Positions 34,325 to 46,597 of a stretch of 64,000 nucleotides of DNA are shown one piece after another (within the stretch, counting starts at the first letter, position 1; every line of letters starts with the position of its first letter). The notes under the pieces are model-generated. The model did no database searches and was not told the DNA's origin. It saw only the letters and a program-made list of their open reading frames with translations. The position numbers were made by a program, and so were the translations under genes. This stretch comes from Dictyostelium discoideum (Eukaryota): positions 5,824,001-5,888,000 of the forward strand of contig CM000152.2 in the NCBI GenBank assembly GCA_000004695.1. The letters are read 5' to 3'.

Positions 34325-35386
34325 TTATTCTAATAAAATACACCAATCAATATTTGGTTTAATTGTTTTTGAATTATTTAAAGTTGAAACAGCCATATGA
34401 CCAGCAAAGAATTCTGTATTATATTCAGTACCATTATCATCGATTTTAACAGGTACAAAGAGGAAACCTCTTGGGACGTCATTGGTATTGACAAAGATCC
34501 AATCAGTGTTGAATTTTCCTCCTCCAAATTCATGTCTTTCTTTATTTTTACCCATCCATTTACCATCATTATCAAAAACACAGAAAGCTGTAATCCAACC
34601 ACTGATATAACGTGGACCTGAGCCTGCACCTTCTTGACTGGCAATACGATTCCACCATTCAATATCTGGTTTACCATTGACGGAACTAATGATTTTATCA
34701 ATGATTGGTGAGAGCATTTCAGACCAATCTTTCATAACTGAACCATCTTTATTATCTTTGAAATCAAATTCTTTTAATTTTTCAATTCTATTCTTTATAT
34801 CGACCCAATCATCGAGGGTACCCTCTAATGTTACCTCTGGTAAACCACACATTAAACACATTTTAAAGTCAAAGTAACTTTTAACGGTTGCCATTAATGC
34901 AATTGATGCTGCCATTGTATCGTTTGGAGTTGTAGTTGAAAATGGTTTGTTTGCCCATTCTCTAATTGATGGATCTTTGATATTCTTTTCAATTTCTTGA
35001 GTCATTCTAATGGTTAATGATTGATAATCTGCTGTCATCAATTTTCCACCACCCCTTACTACCAATTGTTTTTTTCCTTGGAAATCAACAATCTTACTTC
35101 TTAATTGTTCAGCGTTGGCATTTAAATATGACGAGAATTGTACCAAAATTGCCATCCAAATATCATCTGGACGAATGATTAAAGAATGGTGATTTGAATA
35201 CGCAATGAACGAACTTAAAACAAATGAATTACCGCCTACACTCTTTGAAATACCTTCTTTGATACTACTTCTAACTACTTTTCTTTCTGGTTCATTTGGT
35301 TTACCACCATACAATTTTTGGTGTGAAAAATCTAATCCTTTGAATTCACTCTCTCTTACATTTGCTACTTTAAATGTTATAGACAT
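34325..35386 (-). CDS. Conserved hypothetical globular protein (353 aa), possibly DUF4419-type.
   Basis: Clean non-repetitive ORF. Normal amino-acid composition unlike its neighbours: MSITFKVANVRESEFKGLDF…IRPDDIWMAILVQFSSYL…WWNRIASQEGAGSGPRYISGWITAFCVFDNDGKW…. The family call is a from-memory impression, not a computed match. Confidence 0.5.
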   Translation of the reverse strand: MSITFKVANVRESEFKGLDFSHQKLYGGKPNEPERKVVRSSIKEGISKSVGGNSFVLSSFIAYSNHHSLIIRPDDIWMAILVQFSSYLNANAEQLRSKIVDFQGKKQLVVRGGGKLMTADYQSLTIRMTQEIEKNIKDPSIREWANKPFSTTTPNDTMAASIALMATVKSYFDFKMCLMCGLPEVTLEGTLDDWVDIKNRIEKLKEFDFKDNKDGSVMKDWSEMLSPIIDKIISSVNGKPDIEWWNRIASQEGAGSGPRYISGWITAFCVFDNDGKWMGKNKERHEFGGGKFNTDWIFVNTNDVPRGFLFVPVKIDDNGTEYNTEFFAGHMAVSTLNNSKTIKPNIDWCILLE

Positions 35387-35665: not shown

Positions 35666-35830
35666 AAAATAATAGTTTTTTTTGGAATTTGGACTCATTT
35701 GTTTTTGTTAATTAAAAACATTTAATGATTTTTTTTTAATTAAAAAAATAAAAAAAAAAAAAAATCTTTTAATTTTTTTTTACAATTGTAAAAATACCTT
35801 ATCTAATTTTAATGTTGTATAATAATTTAT

Positions 35831-37726: not shown

Positions 37727-37765
37727 TGTTGTAGGGAATTTTCAATAAAATTTCACTACACAGCG
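37727..37765. repeat. Left arm of a perfect 39-bp inverted repeat (tgttgtagggaattttcaataaaatttcactacacagcg).
   Basis: The exact reverse complement recurs at 38982..39020. Neither flank extends the match. Confidence 0.8.
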
Positions 37766-38981
37766 TTCATCATCATCCATTGGCATATTAATAATATTAA
37801 CTGGTAATAGTAATGGCGAATCTAATTGTTGTTGTTGTGGTGATGTTGTTGTTTTTGTTGTTGTTGAAGAAGATGAAGAAGATGAAGAAGATGAAGATGA
37901 TCTTAATTGCAGTGGTTGTAGTTGATTTATTACATTCTTCAATTGGTTCCTCTGGAATTGCATGCTTCAGTTTCTTGTTTAGTTAATTCTTTACTTGGTT
38001 TAATTTCTTGTAAAATTTGACTAGCCGTTGTTACATTATGTTGATTTAAATCTTGTGAGGAAGATAAAGAATTCTCTGCATTAACTTTTAATTGTAAAAT
38101 ATCAAATGGTGATAATACTTCAGGTGCTTCATCAATCATTTTGGATGATTGTTACTATTATGTTGTTGTTGTTGTGATGATGATGATATTGATAATGATC
38201 AAGATGAAGCTGATTGATGATTTTTTCTTTCTTTACCAAGGAAATCAGTTGATCAATTCAAAGAAGAATTTAATTTTGGCATCATATTGCACCGACTGAT
38301 GGTTTGCGTTGAATAAAACTTGTTGATCTGGTGATGATGGTATACCCCTAATTGTTGGGGATTATCCAACTGATACACTTGTAGTAGTATTACCACCAAT
38401 ATTATTACTACTAGTATTTAATGGAGTTGGAATTGGTGTCGATGCACTACTTAATGATGGTGAAGATTGAGCTGATGATATCACATTATTATTATTATTA
38501 TTTATTTTTTATTATTGATAACAACTGGAGTAACACTTAGAATTGTTTTGAAAGAAACCTTCACTATCTAATTTTGCTGCTTTTGTTCTTTCATCTTTTG
38601 AAATTAATACCCAATTAGTATTTTAATTTTGGTAATTCATTAATAACAAATAATATAAACTCTTCACATTTCTTTTAAATTAAATTATTTTCAAATGATA
38701 AATATTTGAAGTTTTAGATTTCTTTAATGTTTGTTATTTGTTGTCCTTAAATTGAAAATATGAAAATAAAAAAAAAATGAAAAACAAAAACGAAAAAAAA
38801 AATGAGAAAAAAAAAAAAAAAAAAAAAAAAAACAATAAAAAAACTTAAATAGAACTAATAATCAAATAAAAGATAATTTAATAAACTTTATTTGTTTTTT
38901 TGAAAAAAAAAAAATTTAGGGTCAGTGATTTTTTTTTTTTCACTACGCTACTGTAGTGAAATTAAATAATAAAATTCACTG
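37766..38981 (-). pseudogene. Decayed coding sequence (S/T/N-rich, multiple frameshifts and stops) lying between the 39-bp inverted repeats.
   Basis: Minus-strand translation gives protein-like segments (…SAQSSPSLSSASTPIPTPLNTSSNN…, MIDEAPEVLSPFDILQLKVNAENSL…, MQFQRNQLKNVINQLQPLQLRSSSSS…). These sit in three different frames with internal stops. The last ORF terminates inside the left IR (…CVVKFY*). No consistent splice solution found. Confidence 0.3.
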
Positions 38982-39020
38982 CGCTGTGTAGTGAAATTTT
39001 ATTGAAAATTCCCTACAACA
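38982..39020. repeat. Right arm of the 39-bp inverted repeat. Preceded by a 22-bp direct duplication (cactacgctactgtagtgaaatt / cactgcgctgtgtagtgaaatt).
   Basis: Direct reading of the sequence at 38941..39020. Confidence 0.8.
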
Positions 39021-39090
39021 ATTACAAAGTCGTATTATAAATTATTACGTTTCAGAATTATTTTCAAATCAAGAAGAATCATCTCAAACA

Positions 39091-39633
39091 ATGATTGATA
39101 CAGTTGAACGATTTCAAACAAATCATCAAACAATACCATATTTTGAAGACGTTAGGCCATTAACGGAAGGTTCATTCAGTAAAGATGGTTGTTGGATGTT
39201 AAGTAAATCTCAATGTTTAACAGTAGATCAACAACCATACTATAATGATGTTGGTTTGGGATTGGATTGGATTGTTGATTTGTACACAAAGACCACATTA
39301 AAAATGATTTATACAAATCCAATTGAAAGATCAAAAACAAGCGAAGAATATTTATGGTTACAAACTGTTTCACCAACAATTATGACATTTGGATTAGACA
39401 TTGCCACATTCTATTTTTCCTATTATTTAGCAAATCAAGAATGGTCAACTCTAGTTTTAACTTCAATTTTATCAGTCTCTTGTGTATTATTACTATTAAT
39501 TTATGTTGCTTTATTTAGACCATATTTAAAGTTCCTTAGAGTTCAACATATTCATACATTGGCTTTATTAAGACTTGCTCCTGATGATATTAGGTACATG
39601 GAAATTAGTGATAAAATAATTGGTGAAGATTAA
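39091..39633 (+). CDS. Hypothetical 180-aa protein with C-terminal hydrophobic segments.
   Basis: ORF starts immediately downstream of the right IR arm. Normal composition. Two predicted TM-like stretches (IMTFGLDIATFYFSYYLA, LVLTSILSVSCVLLLLIYVALF). No family recognised. Confidence 0.35.
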   Translation: MIDTVERFQTNHQTIPYFEDVRPLTEGSFSKDGCWMLSKSQCLTVDQQPYYNDVGLGLDWIVDLYTKTTLKMIYTNPIERSKTSEEYLWLQTVSPTIMTFGLDIATFYFSYYLANQEWSTLVLTSILSVSCVLLLLIYVALFRPYLKFLRVQHIHTLALLRLAPDDIRYMEISDKIIGED

Positions 39634-41572
39634 AAAAAATACATAAAATAAATTATTTCTCAAATTGTAAAAAAAAAAGATTCACATTTTAAATTTGCAA
39701 CACAAATGAAATAGGTTGTAAATTTCACTGCCTTTTTTATTCTTTTGTTTATTCAACACTACTATTTTATTATTTAGTTTTTTTTAATTGTTTTTTTAAT
39801 ATCAAATTAATTTTTCATTCCTCAAAAAATATTAAATTTATAATTCCTTCAGGATCAATACAAATACCATTTGAAGATGGAAGATGAACCACTTTCTCCA
39901 TCACACATTCTCGATACGTTGGTGAATAATAGTAATTTTAAAAAAGATTTTAATAATGACACAGCATTAGTGATTTAGAATTTTTAGCAATTGATGGTAA
40001 AGATGAAATAAAAATAAATAAAGATACTAAAATTTTATAAAAGTTAACTTTTGGGTACAATGAAAAGAGTGAATTAAGAATTCTTTTTTTTTGATAATTC
40101 AACAGACATTTTTGCTGATGCATGAAATTGTGTGATTAATTGGTCAACTGATTCTCTTTCATATATGTTAATTGATGATTCTTGTGTTGGAAAATACATT
40201 TCGTCAATAATTTTAAATGGTGGTGAGCGAGGTGATATAATTTCAAAAATTATTCAAATTGTTGAAAACCATTCATCTTTTATAAATGATTTTTATTCAT
40301 CTGGCAAAGAAATTGATAGTAGTAATATGATAAACTGTGTTAAATTATTGGCATATCAATTTGGTTCAATTCAAGGTGGAATAGATTCCAAAATTGTTAT
40401 TCAAAAATATAGATACAAGAACTGGAACCAATTGGTATATTTTAAACCAACTGGTAATATTAAAATTTTAAATGTCAATTAAATCAATCAAAAGGTTTTC
40501 AATTGGGATGGTTTTACAAATAAAGATAGTCAAGGGTATTTTTTAATTGGATCATCATATCTTGTAAAATAATGATATTGACAAGATAAAGAAATTAAAA
40601 CAAATAGAGAAATTATAAAAAAAAGAATATAATATACGAAGAAGATACTCGAGATTATGAAGATATCATTGATCCAGAAAACATAATTCAAGATGAAAAG
40701 GATCAAGATTATGATTATGATTAAATTACTGAAGAATCTAATTTTGAAGAAAATCAAATTTAATAAATAAATAAAAAAAATTATGATATACAACAATGAT
40801 TTGGTTTTAAATATATTGTTATTATATTTTGGACTATTGTCACATATGTAATATTATCGATTATCTAAACCTCGATATAAATTTAATAAACTCCAAATGT
40901 AAAATATACAGATAAAAAATTGAATTTATAAACAGGTAATAAAATATGGGATAAACAGGAAATTATATTAAGATCAAGTTCATTTATATAAATATTTTAA
41001 AATATGGAAATCATGACATTCCACTACGAATATGTGAGCTAACAATGTTATGAATTTGGTGAACGATAATCCTCTCCCATCACCGCTGAAAACTATATTG
41101 TCATTACTAATATTGTTCATTATTACTATTATTTATGTTTTATTTTACCTAATTATTTTTTTTTTTTTTATTTTTATTTTTTTTTTATTTTTTAAATTTA
41201 TTATTACGCACGATATTTGTTTTGATCAACTGCTATGTCACCAAATGTAATAACCACTGTTAATCTATTAATTACAGAATTATGTTATTAAGGTCTAAAC
41301 TTACTAAATGAATTACACACTACAAAGATTATGTTTTATAAATATGATGAATGATCGACCACTTTATTTAATGTTATTTTATGTGTATTTATACTCTTAT
41401 GTTTTATGCTAGCTAATCATTACTCGTTGCAATAGAACCTTCTAGAAAGCATGTTGATTCATTAAAGATATTTATTGATTACTTGAAAACCTTACGAAAC
41501 ATCGTAACCCTAACTTAACTATGTACGAAACCATGTTTTTTTTTTTTTTTTTTTTTGAATGTACGAAACCAT

Positions 41573-41897
41573 TTTTTTTTTTTTTGAATTGGATAACGCA
41601 ATTATTATTTGCTTCTCCTTGAGATGCTAGATCTCATTTTATTTTTTTTTTTTTTTTACAGGGTCTTTTTGATTAAAACATCTTTTTTGTCCAAACTTTT
41701 TTCTAAATCTTTTTTTATTTTATCGTCTGGTTCGTGATTGATGTTTATGACGTATTTGAATTGTTTTTTTTTTAATTGAGTTTTATCCACAATTTCGCTT
41801 ATTTTTTGTAGGCATTTGTGTTGCTTAATATTTGTGGTGTTGTTTGTGATTTTCATTTTATTTTCTTTCTATCTTTTTTATTTTTCTGATTAACTTG

Positions 41898-41939
<42 letters not shown>

Positions 41940-43645
41940 TTATAGAAAGTACTGAGTGAATTATTGTATTTTTTGAGATGTTTAGGAAGTTCTATTGCGG
42001 GTGTTGATGATGATTTGTGACACCCCTTGTCCTGTTTTATCAATTGGTGCGTGGTGTGTTATTTTGTTTTTATATTGTTGATTTATTGAGTAAATTTTAT
42101 TTGTTTTTATATTTGTTTCAGTTAGAAGTGCTGCGTCCAGCTTGTTGTTGTCTAAAACGGTGTTTATTATGCTGGCAGATTGGATGGTATTGGATCCTTG
42201 GACGTTCCAAACACCTATTCTTATTGTGTTTTTCTTTATAGTTTTATTTGGGGTAGATTTTTATCTACCTTTTGAAGTTTCTGGTTTATTTTGTCTTCTA
42301 ACTGATCTTTACTTTGTTCATTGTGTTGTTGGTCTTGTGTGTTTGTGGGGTTTTTTGATTTATTGATTTGTTTTAGAATTTCCTTGTTGAAGTTGTCTAT
42401 ATCTTCATCCATTTTTGTTTTTATGCTTTTTTGTCCATATTCACCCAATTTTGGTTTGACTGGTGTTTTGTTGGTCTTGTTTGTTTTGTCTTGTTGTTTC
42501 TTTTTTGGTGTGTTTAACAATTTACTTGGTGAATCGATAATTTTCGATGGTGTACCATAGGTTGGGCTGAAACTCATGATATGTTTTATTGGAGAGGAGA
42601 AGAACCATTGATTTGAAGGGATTGAAAGTGGGAATTCTATTTTTCTTATTGCATCAGTGTTTGGGCTGGTGAAGTCGAAGATATCATTTGCCTCTCTAAG
42701 TTTTTCTTCCGTTGTTAGTCCCTTTGTTTCGCCGTGTTGTTTTATTGGTGTATTGTATGGAGATGGTGGTTCGATAGGTTTTTCTGATTTTGTTTTAATT
42801 TCTTGATTGTTTATCGATTGGGTATTGATCTCATTCTCTATTCTTGTTAGTTCATCTACGTTTTCTAGTGATGCTTCTATTACCTTTTGAGCTGTATCAT
42901 CTAGGGCCATAAATGTTTTATCATTAGATGAGGATGTGATTGGTGGGATAATGATTGTTCTTTTTCCTTGTTTTGGTATTTGTTCTGATGTAGATTGTGG
43001 TTGTTGTTCATCTGATTGTTTTTTATTTTTGTTTTCTTCTTGATTTTCTGGTAATGAGGTTTGATCTCTCCATCCTTTGTTGGAGTGTCCAATTAATGTT
43101 AGATTGTCTAGTTCAATGATAGTGTCAAATTCTTCTACGACTCTTTTCACTGTTTTGATAATTAGAGTTTCGCCTTTAATTTCTGATTTAATTAGTTTAC
43201 ATCCTTCATTTTCTATTACCCATTCTATTTCATTGTGGTATTTATACCAATCAAAATCTCTGCATCTATTTTTTGGTCTTATAGTGGTTATAAATTGTCC
43301 TTTTAATTCTGCATCAAACATATTTACAAAATAGATTACTGTACTAATACTGTCTGTGAGAATTTTGAATGTATTATTACTTTTGATTAAAACATCTTTT
43401 TTGTCCAAACTTTTTTCTAAATCTTTTTTTATTTTATCGTCTGGTTCGTGATTGATGTTTATGACGTATTTGAATTGTTTTTTTTTTAATTGAGTTTTAT
43501 CCACAATTTCGCTTATTTTTTGTAGGCATTTGTGTTGCTTAATATTTGTGGTGTTGTTTGTGATTTTCATTTTATTTTCTTTCTATCTTTTTTATTTTTC
43601 TTTAAAAAGTTAAAAATCTGGAAATTTTCTAATTAACTTGGTTCC

Positions 43646-43689
<44 letters not shown>

Positions 43690-43955
43690 TCTTTTTTATA
43701 TGAAAAATGAAATAATCAAAAAAAGAGATTGTTGTTGTTGTTTGTTTTTTTCGATCTGATTATTTTTTGCTTTTTTTTTGAAAATTTTGCTACGCAAAAT
43801 TCTCAAAACGAAACAAATAATAAATTACAATAAAGTAAAAAGATGGCTTTTTAAAATAGTTTATTTATTTATTTATTTGTTTTTTAAGTCTTTTTTATAT
43901 GAAAAATGAAATAATCAAAAAAAGAGATTGTTGTTGTTGTTTGTTTTTTTCGATC
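41573..43955 (-). mobile_element. TRE5-A (DRE) non-LTR retrotransposon, ORF2-deleted form (TRE5-A.2-like). Element 5' end lies 52 bp upstream of tRNA-Val. Flanked by 16-bp target-site duplication gaatgtacgaaaccat.
   Basis: Minus-strand order: two tandem A-module copies (43689..43758 and 43878..43950 are near-identical); B-module; intact ORF1 (43570..42236); about 280 nt ending in the pre-3'-UTR sequence (…cgcaatagaacttcctaaacatctcaaaaaatacaataattcactcagtactttctataaata) with ORF2 missing; oligo(A); a 3' B-module copy including the first 66 codons of ORF1 (41856..41659); then the C-module terminus (…agaccctgt(A)n taaaatgagatctagcatctcaaggagaagcaaataataattgcgttatccaattc) and the final oligo(A) at 41573..41584. 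TSD copies at 41557..41572 and 43957..43972. Module assignments follow published TRE5-A architecture as recalled. Confidence 0.8.
42236..43570 (-). CDS. TRE5-A ORF1 protein (444 aa).
   Basis: Intact ORF MKITNNTTNIKQHKCLQKISEIVDKTQLKKKQFKYVININHEPDDKIKK…. The same N-terminal 60-66 aa recur at 41656..41856 and 45082..45264 as part of the 3' B-module copies of the two elements. Confidence 0.8.
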   Translation of the reverse strand: MKITNNTTNIKQHKCLQKISEIVDKTQLKKKQFKYVININHEPDDKIKKDLEKSLDKKDVLIKSNNTFKILTDSISTVIYFVNMFDAELKGQFITTIRPKNRCRDFDWYKYHNEIEWVIENEGCKLIKSEIKGETLIIKTVKRVVEEFDTIIELDNLTLIGHSNKGWRDQTSLPENQEENKNKKQSDEQQPQSTSEQIPKQGKRTIIIPPITSSSNDKTFMALDDTAQKVIEASLENVDELTRIENEINTQSINNQEIKTKSEKPIEPPSPYNTPIKQHGETKGLTTEEKLREANDIFDFTSPNTDAIRKIEFPLSIPSNQWFFSSPIKHIMSFSPTYGTPSKIIDSPSKLLNTPKKKQQDKTNKTNKTPVKPKLGEYGQKSIKTKMDEDIDNFNKEILKQINKSKNPTNTQDQQHNEQSKDQLEDKINQKLQKVDKNLPQIKL

Positions 43956-44007
43956 TCGAATGTACGAAACCATGTACTATGATTCATCACAAAAAAAATA
44001 TCAATAT

Positions 44008-44081
44008 GTTCGGATGGTGTAGTCGGTTATCACGAATCCTTAACACGGATTAGGTCGTGGGTTCGATTCCCGCTCTGAATA
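44008..44081 (+). tRNA. tRNA-Val (anticodon AAC).
   Basis: Cloverleaf: acceptor GTTCGGA/TCTGAAT+A. A-box GGTGTAGTCGG. Anticodon stem AATCC/GGATT with loop TTAACAC (U33, AAC, A37). T-arm GTGGG-TTCGATT-CCCGC (B-box GGTTCGATTCC). Terminator TTCTTTTT immediately 3'. Confidence 0.85.
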
Positions 44082-44113
44082 CTTCTTTTTAAAGAACCGA
44101 TTATAGATCGCAT

Positions 44114-44123
44114 GTTCGATTCC
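44114..44123 (+). promoter_or_regulatory. External B-box (ex-B, GTTCGATTCC) 33 bp downstream of the tRNA-Val at 44008.
   Basis: Exact B-box copy within gatcgcatgttcgattccctatttt. Extra downstream B-boxes are a known Dictyostelium tRNA-gene feature. Confidence 0.6.
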
Positions 44124-44880
44124 CTATTTTGATTATGGTGTTAAAAAATACAAAAAAAAAAAAAAAGAAAAGAAAAAAAAATTATGTAATAATAAAATTT
44201 GCTTTTATAAAATTTTTAATTAATTTAAAATAAACAAATTAAAATATATACATTTAATTTTTTTTTTTTTTTATTTTTAATTTTGAAAATTTCATTTCAT
44301 TTTATTTTTCTACAAATAAAATTAAATTTTTATTTACAATTTATTTGTTACTGTAATCCTGAATAACAATAAATAGGGGAAAAAATAATTTTTTAATTTG
44401 AATAGTCACTATTTTATTTATTTTGAAAAAAAAACTTAAATTTTTGTAATTTTGATAGTCAATAAATTGAGTGAATTAGTATATTAATAAACAATATCGA
44501 ATATTAAAACATCAAAAGAAAATAAATAAATAAATATCATTATCGTTAAAAAATAAAATTGTGTACAAATAAACGAGTATTTCAAATAATATTATTAAGA
44601 GATAAATTTTATATAAGTTTATTTTTAAAGTGTTCAAAGGGTCACATATTGTATTGATATACAAAATATTATAAATATTCCATATAAGTTGGAGTACGAG
44701 GATCTTTACAAATGTAATAAAGTTTGTTTTTAAAATTGAGAATAATAAATAATTCCAAATGGAATAATTTTATAAATTATGATTATATTTAATTAATACA
44801 TGTTTAATTATTATCTTTATATATTAGATTATCTCTTAATATTGTGTATTACTCGAGTTGATTGAATAAACTTCTAAAAT

Positions 44881-45013
44881 AAGTGTCTTTTTTTTGAATT
44901 GGATAACGCAATTATTAGTTGCTTCTCCTTGAGATGCTAGATCTCATTTTATTTTTAATTTTTTTTTTTATTTTTTTTTTTTACAGGGTCTCTAAAAGAG
45001 GGGTTAGTTTACT

Positions 45014-45052
<39 letters not shown>

Positions 45053-45340
45053 CGAATTTTGAATTGTATTATAACTTTTGATTAAAACATCTTTTTTGTC
45101 CAAATTTTTTCTAAATCTTTATTTATTTTATCGTCTGGTTCGTGATTGATGTTTATGACGTATTTGAATTGTTTTTTTTTTAATTGAGTTTTATCCACAA
45201 TTTCGCTTATTTTTTGTAGGCATTTGTGTTGCTTAATATTTGTGGTGTTGTTTGTGATTTTCATTTTATTTTCTTTCTATTTTTTATATTTTTCTTTAAA
45301 AAGTTAAAAATCTGGAAATTTTCTGATTAACTTGGGTTCC

Positions 45341-45403
<63 letters not shown>

Positions 45404-46080
45404 TTATGGAGAGTACTGAGTGAATTATTGTATTTTTTGAGATGTTTGGGAAGTGCTATTGCGTGAAGAGGTGAGTTCCATTGTCTGCTAAATTTTAATA
45501 GCTTTAGCGAGATTAATGAGTCTAATTTATTTTGTTCTTCTGGCCGTTGCTTTGATTTGATTCTTAATGTTTTGTTTATAACCGCTTGTGTCCTGTCCCA
45601 TGGAGCTCTTTGTGTTTTAATTAGTTCACGTATGACTTGTTGTCTATGAATTACTATTTCTATTTCATCGTGGATGAGTTTGTTTCTTTTGTGCCAAATT
45701 TTTTCGAATATAATAGCTATTAAATTGGCTATTAGTGCAATTTGTAGATGGTTTAAAATCTTAACATTCCAGGTGTGAGTGGTGTGTCCACACTTGATTA
45801 AGGTGTAGTTGAAGATTTCTTGTGTGTTTTTGATGTGGGCTTTGCAGTTGAAGAATATATGTTCTGAAGTCTCATCTTCCCCACACTGTTTGGCATGTTG
45901 CATATTTTTGGTAGTGCTTTCAGTGTGTATCTCCATAATAGGTCTCTACCTTTCATGTTTATTATTTTTTTAATTTCTATAAATGGAAGGTGTTTGCTAT
46001 TGATTTTGGTCATTATTTCTTTTTGGCCAGGAGTTGGTATGAATTTGTTGTGTTCTGGAGATTGGGTTGTCATCCTCGTA
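44881..46080 (-). mobile_element. TRE5-A, 5'-truncated within ORF2: ORF2 3' end, 3' B-module copy, C-module and oligo(A). Flanked by 16-bp TSD taaaataagtgtcttt. Truncated 5' end lies 47 bp upstream of the second tRNA-Val.
   Basis: TSD copies at 44865..44880 and 46081..46096. Minus-strand order: ORF2 C-terminal region with frameshift (46080..45400, zinc-knuckle-like …CGEDETSEHIFFNCKAH…); oligo(A) 45345..45400; B-module tail plus ORF1 first 60 codons (45264..45082); oligo(A); C-module terminus identical to that in element 1 (…gcgttatccaattc); terminal (A)9. Confidence 0.75.
45400..46080 (-). pseudogene. Truncated, frameshifted 3' portion of TRE5-A ORF2 (reverse-transcriptase C-terminal cysteine-rich region).
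   Basis: Two overlapping ORFs in different frames (45798..46073 and 45400..45936). C-x-C…H…C knuckle (…LPKICNMP… and …KQCGEDETSEHIFFNCKAHIK…) typical of the LINE ORF2 C-terminus. No start codon; the element is 5'-truncated. Confidence 0.7.
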
Positions 46081-46127
46081 TAAAATAAGTGTCTTTATTT
46101 ATTTCTTTAAAAAAAAAATATCAATAT

Positions 46128-46201
46128 GTTCGGATGGTGTAGTCGGTTATCACGAATCCTTAACACGGATTAGGTCGTGGGTTCGATTCCCGCTCTGAAT
46201 A
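46128..46201 (+). tRNA. tRNA-Val (anticodon AAC), second copy identical to 44008..44081.
   Basis: Identical 74-nt sequence. Same 17-bp upstream flank (aaaaaaaatatcaatat). Terminator TTCTTTTT. Same downstream spacer plus ex-B box. Confidence 0.85.
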
Positions 46202-46233
46202 CTTCTTTTTAAAGAACCTAATATAGATCGCAT

Positions 46234-46243
46234 GTTCGATTCC
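46234..46243 (+). promoter_or_regulatory. External B-box (GTTCGATTCC) 33 bp downstream of the second tRNA-Val.
   Basis: Same context as at 44114. Confidence 0.6.
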
Positions 46244-46256
46244 CTATTTATTCTTA

Positions 46257-46289
46257 TTAGGTCGTGGGTTCGATTCCCGCTCTGAATAC
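46257..46289 (+). other. Orphan tRNA-Val 3' half (nt 42-74, ttaggtcgtgggttcgattcccgctctgaatac) followed by a T-run. A third B-box-like GGGTTCGATTCC lies at about 46320..46331.
   Basis: Exact match to the 3' 33 nt of the tRNA at 46128. No 5' half, so non-functional as a tRNA. It does supply another B-box. Confidence 0.6.
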
Positions 46290-46597
46290 TTATTTTTCAA
46301 ATTTAAATTGTTAAATAGTGGGTTCGATTCCGATCATGTAAAAAAAACCTCTCTTCGCATCAAAAAACCAAATTATTTTTTTTAGAAATTTATCTTTTTT
46401 TTTAATTTTTTTTAATTAAAAAAAAAAATAACCCTAAAAAAACCAAGAATAAAATAGATTAGAAAACAAAAAAAAACTTTTTAAAAAAAAAAAATTGTGA
46501 GAATAAGAAATAATTTAGAAAATAAAAACAAATATTAATAAATATCACCAAGAGTCTATTTTTATTTTTTTATTTTTCATTAAAAAAACAATAAACG

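Follow-up and report, generated by a model that had tools for sequence, protein, structure and literature searches.

In Dictyostelium discoideum, the DNA transposons that have been described (Tdd, DDT and thug) account for 1.5% of the genome, and their proteins are unlike known transposases (PMC5633606). Two of them, TDD-4 and TDD-5, belong to the Ginger2/Tdd group, for which TGTNR termini have been reported; the arms of these two elements are 260-297 bp in length and their target-site duplications 5 bp, while arms of 45-297 bp and duplications of 4-5 bp are described for Ginger2/Tdd in general, together with a non-autonomous element of 252 bp, Ginger2-1N1_NV (PMC2836005). Thug-S, thug-T and DDT-A/B/S were described as 'putative DNA transposons' by Glockner et al. 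2001, according to the summary in PMC5633606, and the ORF of thug-S has an 'intron' in which the multicopy hairpin miRNA_can_D3 is found (PMC4894637).

The locus described here, at positions 37727-39020 of a 64-kb window (the whole stretch of D. discoideum DNA that was analysed, 64,000 nucleotides of AX4 chromosome 3 as identified by exact look-up of its ORFs), is probably a new or uncatalogued member of this set of DNA transposons. It resembles Tdd/Ginger2, a group with known short non-autonomous derivatives, in its host species, its terminal inverted repeats and its TGTNR...YNACA ends, and differs from the published description of that group in that its arms are 39 bp long as against 260-297 bp in TDD-4 and TDD-5 (and just below the range of 45-297 bp), that a 5-bp duplication and an integrase/DDE domain are both absent, and that its reading frame is an orphan. 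When compared by description with the thug and DDT elements, it is similar in being specific to D. discoideum, in its low abundance and in an ORF that resembles no known transposase; since the proteins of D. discoideum transposons are unlike known transposases (PMC5633606), an orphan ORF between inverted ends is in character for this genome. The microRNA of thug-S speaks against identity with that element, since the window contains neither arm of miRNA_can_D3 even when 3 mismatches are allowed.

Two more general classes also offer points of comparison. As in Pack-MULE-type elements, a fragment of non-functional coding sequence, with a counterpart elsewhere in the genome, lies between short inverted ends; the locus nonetheless departs from Pack-type and MITE-like elements in lacking a target-site duplication and Mutator-like features, and its 1.3 kb is large for a MITE. 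Elements of the latter kind are usually shorter than 800 bp, non-coding, present in high copy number and flanked by a target-site duplication, whereas this one is 1294 bp long and coding-like, with no duplication and no evidence of high copy number. A foldback or MITE-like element carrying captured coding sequence, one of three explanations proposed in an earlier sequence-only reading of this DNA, is the best favoured of the three, on the strength of the discrete and perfect inverted ends, the TG...CA termini, the subterminal palindromic repeats, the second copy of the interior and the decay of the ORF. Finally, a duplicated, non-processed pseudogene would share with the locus a paralogue (here DDB_G0278667), frameshifts and stops, and a parent that is only partly present; the locus differs from an ordinary pseudogene in its perfect inverted repeat with TG...CA ends, and in that the model of the 'parent' itself was apparently built over broken sequence.

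Terminal arms and subterminal palindromes

The two ends of the element, at 37727-37765 (left) and 38982-39020 (right), are exact reverse complements of one another at 39 of 39 positions, and together span 1294 bp. This 39-bp sequence was found twice in the window and never in 100 shuffles, which upholds the two exact inverted arms described in the sequence-only reading; no third copy is present in the 64 kb at up to 3 mismatches, and in our own scan of the window the pair was the sole exact inverted repeat of at least 20 nt outside low-complexity sequence. The left arm reads TGTTGTAGGGAATTTTCAATAAAATTTCACTACACAGCG, and its outer end, TGTTG, fits TGTNR; the termini of the element as a whole (TGTTG...CAACA) thus display the TGTNR...YNACA pattern of Ginger2/Tdd, a correspondence that was spotted post hoc and for which a rough estimate of the chance probability, in the local base composition, is about 0.01. 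The arms are exact over 39 bp and 93% identical over 46 bp, and an extension of the repeat beyond 39 bp was rejected, as the next 7 bp outward agree at 4 of 7 positions, which is the level expected by chance.

Target-site duplications of 2-9 bp were sought at the flanks and none was found, the sequences adjoining the element being TTGAA on the left and ATTAC on the right; a weak 3-bp AAT is the sole possible duplication, and only if the arms are counted as 38 bp. The left flank TTTATTTTGAA and the right flank ATTACAAAG, joined in the absence of the element, constitute the predicted empty site. Beyond the window, the 39-mer found no match in approximately 63 kb of other Dictyostelium DNA; its core, as would be expected, was also without a match in JGI metagenomes and in the genomes of prokaryotes.

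The perfection of the arms is not, in itself, a sign of constraint. At a nucleotide divergence of 2-3% between copies (our own estimate, derived from approximately 94% amino-acid identity between the interior and its relative), 78 bp would remain unchanged with a probability of about 0.4, such that chance alone would leave perfect arms in some 40% of cases, and no selection on the arms is needed.

The right end of the element contains two copies of a subterminal palindromic repeat, both read on the plus strand. The first, TTCACTACGCTACTGTAGTGAAATT, lies at 38939-38963, inside the element and outside the 39-bp arm; the second, TTCACTGCGCTGTGTAGTGAAATT, lies at 38975-38998, and its 3' half belongs to the right arm. 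Each copy forms an imperfect palindrome of the structure TTTCACTAC-N-GTAGTGAAA, and the two, of 25 and 24 nt respectively, repeat one another directly but imperfectly, being identical at 22 of 25 positions and situated 36 bp apart. Folded as DNA, the right end is predicted to form two adjacent hairpins (-15.5 kcal/mol, z = -4.8). The sequence-only reading had noted a 22-bp direct duplication with short hairpins at this position; both the repeat and the palindromes are present, while the length of 22 bp gives way to the imperfect units just described. The palindromic motif was found nowhere else in the 64-kb window, and the left arm contains only its outer half and loop, so that the ends are asymmetric, with two palindromes on the right and half of one on the left. 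Repeated subterminal palindromes are a type of feature that is bound by transposases. A further proposal of the earlier reading, that of a palindromic, hairpin-ended DNA element, applies only loosely, inasmuch as two short palindromes are present at the right end.

The element is also present in an independent D. discoideum assembly, GCA_054883475.1, in the same orientation as in the AX4 reference, with identical arms and a single poly-T difference. Logan short-read contigs from two samples place the right arm beside DDB_G0282503, again with the orientation unchanged; these contigs break at the arm or in poly-A, and begin at window positions 38991 (L002) and 38978 (L003). We infer that 38991 is where a k=31 graph would branch if an inverted repeat reached outward as far as 39020. 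Because the repeat is recovered in an independent assembly, and because the short-read contigs break at the arm, the inverted repeat is real, and an artefact of assembly is ruled out.

One of the two short-read samples further indicates that the right end is variable. In contig L003 (SRR26869268, positions 1-45, corresponding approximately to window positions 38978-39020), palindrome copy 1 runs straight into the outer portion of the arm, such that one 36-bp unit is present as opposed to two, and the exact inverted repeat in that sample would be approximately 34 bp in length. The single palindrome unit in SRR26869268 implies that the subterminal duplication is polymorphic.

The decayed interior and its relative on the same chromosome

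With a G+C content of 26%, the element stands above the 21% of the window. Read along the minus strand, the right arm with its two palindromes is followed by a T-rich spacer (38701-38938, 13.9% G+C), which is promoter-like or intron-like in character, and then by approximately 960 bp of 28.7% G+C. The spacer ends in AG directly before the codons KCEEF, at which point homology to the protein DDB_G0278667 begins.

The decayed reading frame occupies 37742-38674 on the minus strand and passes through frames C, A, B, A and C in turn, with several stops in frame and at least three frameshifts. When the element is scored by a codon-usage log-likelihood for which 21 long ORFs of the window served as the training set, a single frame at a time gives a positive value: frame A at 38680-38380, frame B at 38320-38260, frame A again at 38140-38050, and frame C at 37960-37840. 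At least 17 stops are present in every frame of the element. A single positive frame that switches along the element, combined with stops in all frames, indicates that the coding impression is genuine and that the ORF is broken, in agreement with the minus-strand coding character, interrupted by frameshifts and stops, that had been read from the sequence alone. Past the region of homology to DDB_G0278667, coding-like sequence continues in another frame up to a stop within the left arm; the final ORF (37742-37963, minus strand) terminates at 37742-37744, eight codons into that arm, where the earlier reading had also placed its end.

Exact look-up identified a 66-aa fragment of the interior (37939-38139, minus strand) as the AX4 gene DDB_G0282771 (Q54SF0), which belongs to a cluster, at 90% identity or more, with DDB_G0278667 (Q54Y89, 316 aa), a gene on the same chromosome. 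The previous assertion that nothing is annotated at this locus was accordingly wrong in part, and the search that it had recommended for a parent gene has yielded a parent or paralogue in DDB_G0278667. With that homologue in hand, the alternative raised at the time, in which the interior would have no protein homologue in any frame and its coding impression would be compositional, does not apply.

Comparison of the element with DDB_G0278667 as a protein sequence places at least two copies of the interior in AX4. Residues 172-316 of that protein match window positions 38674-37942 at approximately 94% amino-acid identity, distributed over three frames of the minus strand: (i) residues 172-193 correspond to 38674-38609 in frame C, with 19 of 22 residues identical; (ii) residues 194-215 follow in frame A (22/22); (iii) residues 216-249 lie in frame B, with a TGA in place of a serine codon and an 18-nt indel in a serine tract; and (iv) residues 250-316 return to frame A (64/67), ending at a stop common to both copies after ...ACNSRGTN. 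Relative to the DDB_G0278667 model, the lesions therefore consist of the TGA that replaces a serine codon and two frameshifts, and the presence of a recognisable paralogue alongside disabling mutations is what characterises a duplicated pseudogene. Residues 1-171 of DDB_G0278667 are encoded nowhere in the window, and neither blastn nor tblastn detected a paralogue of the interior elsewhere in it.

The DDB_G0278667 model contains two 'introns', which are represented here by segments of 164 nt (25% G+C) and 148 nt (36.5% G+C), both of them full of coding-like sequence and stops; the G+C content of the two immediate flanks was measured at 9.5% on the left and 22.9% on the right. We infer from the sequence that these 'introns' are not real, and that the second copy is broken at the same places. 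As the segments are unlike real introns, both copies appear to descend from a sequence that was already broken.

As judged by sequence comparison, the interior is an orphan restricted to the D. discoideum lineage. A full HMMER search with the 66-aa fragment against 1.84 billion representatives returned only the fragment itself and a spurious bacterial repeat protein; no Pfam domain was detected in the ORF fragments or in DDB_G0278667, and no relatives of protein P0008 were found in metagenomes. Rfam searches returned only sub-threshold noise, and the gene identifiers of the locus were not mentioned in the literature that was searched.

Annotation of this region differs between assemblies. GCA_054883475.1 (L001:4653-5050) carries a 122-aa gene at window positions 37742-38139 on the minus strand, where AX4 has the 66-aa DDB_G0282771. 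No canonical GT-AG intron that would give a 122-aa product was found at 37742-38139, and the product of the sole GC-AG candidate (29 nt) is absent from the protein collection, as are, by exact look-up, eleven guessed 122-aa variants and a set of guessed read-through ORFs. Nor does that collection contain any of the remaining small ORFs of the element.

Origin of the element

The reading that we prefer, and which we regard as about evenly balanced between right and wrong, is that 37727-39020 represents a dead, low-copy DNA element bounded by terminal inverted repeats, either a non-autonomous, internally deleted derivative of a cut-and-paste-type transposon or an element of the Pack type with a captured host-gene fragment. 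The abrupt and perfect arms, the TG...CA ends, the repeated palindrome, the repeated interior and the orphan ORF all speak for such an element; against it stand the lack of a target-site duplication, the shortness of the arms, the asymmetry of the ends, and the absence of any further copy of the 39-mer from the sequences that were searched.

Under this reading, the layout of the element would comprise a right arm with two palindromes as candidate transposase-binding sites, an AT-rich leader, an orphan ORF directed leftward, and the left arm. In the past, an enzyme of the DDE/integrase type (similar to that of Tdd/Ginger2) that recognises TG...CA ends would have acted in trans to excise and insert it. 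Internal deletions, for which abortive gap repair is a putative source, would have cost the ORF its first 171 or so codons and the left palindrome its inner half, and the element would now be immobile and decaying between two divergently transcribed genes.

A more specific form of the same reading is put forward only tentatively, and we consider it rather unlikely as a whole: that the locus belongs to an uncatalogued, D. discoideum-specific family with short TGTNR-type ends, moved in trans by an integrase-like transposase of Tdd/Ginger2, whose copies have been mis-annotated as DDB_G0282771 and as the C-terminal half of DDB_G0278667, and whose outward ends now lie in the promoter regions of the P450 gene and its neighbour.

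The strongest alternative to a transposon takes its evidence in part from the surroundings of the element, which sits between a cytochrome P450 gene (35831-37526, minus strand) and DDB_G0282503 (39091-39633, plus strand, identified by exact look-up), the two being divergently transcribed; on the far side of the P450 gene lies DDB_G0282767, a DUF4419 gene (34325-35386, minus strand; exact look-up, AX4 chromosome 3). Were the element removed, the starts of the P450 gene (37526) and of DDB_G0282503 (39091) would be separated by 270 bp in divergent orientation. An apparently intact gene had previously been noted to begin 70 bp outside the right arm, and an ATG-initiated ORF does begin there, at 39091. 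The intervening 70 bp (39021-39090, plus strand) themselves carry no stop in the frame of the DDB_G0282503 ATG and are coding-like in that frame, scoring 0.58 bits per codon (within the top 5% of random windows) versus 0.30 for the ORF of that gene, and the open frame enters the right arm. This in-frame continuity suggests that the element abuts a reading frame that was once longer, and the annotated DDB_G0282503 may be its 5'-truncated remnant.

Comparison with related genomes was complicated by the absence of the entire neighbourhood. Three assemblies, GCA_054859205.1 (D. cf. discoideum), GCA_054859385.1 and GCA_054859355.1, which are approximately 79-96% identical to the window over aligned syntenic segments, all lose synteny at window positions 35,754-35,781 or thereabouts (within 30 bp of each other) and regain it, at the same locus, in the tRNA-Val region at approximately 44.0-46.3 kb. 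A block of 8-10 kb (approximately 35.8-44 kb), in which the element lies together with the P450 gene, DDB_G0282503 and the gene after it, is thus missing from the syntenic locus in all three, and in two of them LTR retroelements are found at the position of the block. The absence of the whole block in three assemblies marks a rearrangement-prone, lineage-specific region, and means that no clean empty site is available.

These observations bear directly on the possibility, which we regard as real but improbable, that no transposase was involved, and that a break in the DNA separating the P450 gene from DDB_G0282503 received a partial copy of a host gene similar to DDB_G0278667, taken from its 3' half (part of an intron plus the exons downstream), with the 39-bp inverted copy arising from a template switch during repair at a quasi-palindrome near 38985. 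Such an origin would account for the missing target-site duplication and for the disrupted reading frame of the right flank, and would sit naturally in a block that is absent from three related assemblies and prone to rearrangement; it is also consistent with the homology to DDB_G0278667 beginning exactly after the AG that ends an AT-rich, intron-like stretch, with the first 171 residues of that protein missing from the window, and with the position of the right arm's inner edge (38982), no more than 3 nt from the middle of the second palindrome, where a switch would naturally occur. It requires, however, that TGTTG (TGTNR) at the outer end of the copied tract be a coincidence. The pseudo-introns and the common stop, for their part, suggest that the source was already broken, which would suit a repeat family as well as it suits a duplicated pseudogene. 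Inverted junction duplications of such neatness are rare in comparison with elements that carry terminal inverted repeats, which again counts against this origin.

The third explanation of the sequence-only reading, in which a once-functional gene was flipped by recombination between pre-existing 39-bp inverted sequences, cut off from its regulatory context, and then allowed to decay, gained no specific support and is very hard to credit: inverted repeats are able to mediate inversion, and the ORF is dead with a stop inside one arm, yet the promoter-like leader and the ORF both lie between the arms, so that flipping would leave the ORF intact; the lesions are internal frameshifts and stops, with none at the arms; the orientation is unchanged in GCA_054883475.1 and, at the right arm, in the two Logan contigs; and several lesions are apparently common to the second copy, which would place the decay before the duplication. 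Equally improbable is the idea that the arms form a common cis-regulatory module, kept identical by selection and facing outward toward the P450 gene (200 bp from its ATG) and DDB_G0282503 (70 bp from its ATG), for while both are oriented alike relative to the gene that they face and are perfectly identical although the interior has decayed, the motif occurs nowhere else in a gene-rich 64 kb, 78 bp of perfect identity is no surprise given how old the copies are estimated to be, and the repeated interior is left unexplained.

If the preferred reading, that of a dead transposon, is correct, then two 'hypothetical protein' models are pieces of a dead repeat and should be re-labelled in the reference annotation of a major model organism, a low-copy family connected through its ends with the integrase-type Tdd/Ginger2 elements joins the short list of DNA transposons in D. 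discoideum, and a handle is provided on the enzyme that moves the orphan-ORF elements of this genome. Were the template switch correct instead, the locus would be a neat case of palindrome-triggered switching at a duplication junction. With either outcome no major concept is changed, and the element is worth cataloguing without representing a new kind of biology.

The surrounding block

Sequence at 41,500-46,300 is composed of repeated units. When compared with the other assembly, 221-bp segments at 41667-41887 and at 43381-43601 are matched at 100%, and the segment at 45076-45295 at 98%, by the same stretches. The same block contains two tRNA-Val(AAC) genes, at 44008-44082 and 46128-46202, and ORFs of 444 and 178 aa without a Pfam match. 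In D. discoideum, tRNA genes are the landing sites of TRE and DGLT-A retroelements. If the transposon reading holds, the lineage-specific block near these tRNA genes would also offer a small case of how a gene-poor patch is assembled in a very compact genome.

Just 3' of DDB_G0282503, a 116-aa ORF (40132-40482, plus strand) displays a sub-threshold Pfam match to the C-terminal domain of terpene synthase family 2 (E = 0.005, 17 bits against a cut-off of 23.7). As this ORF lies 2.6 kb from a P450 gene, it may be what is left of a pairing of terpene synthase and P450.
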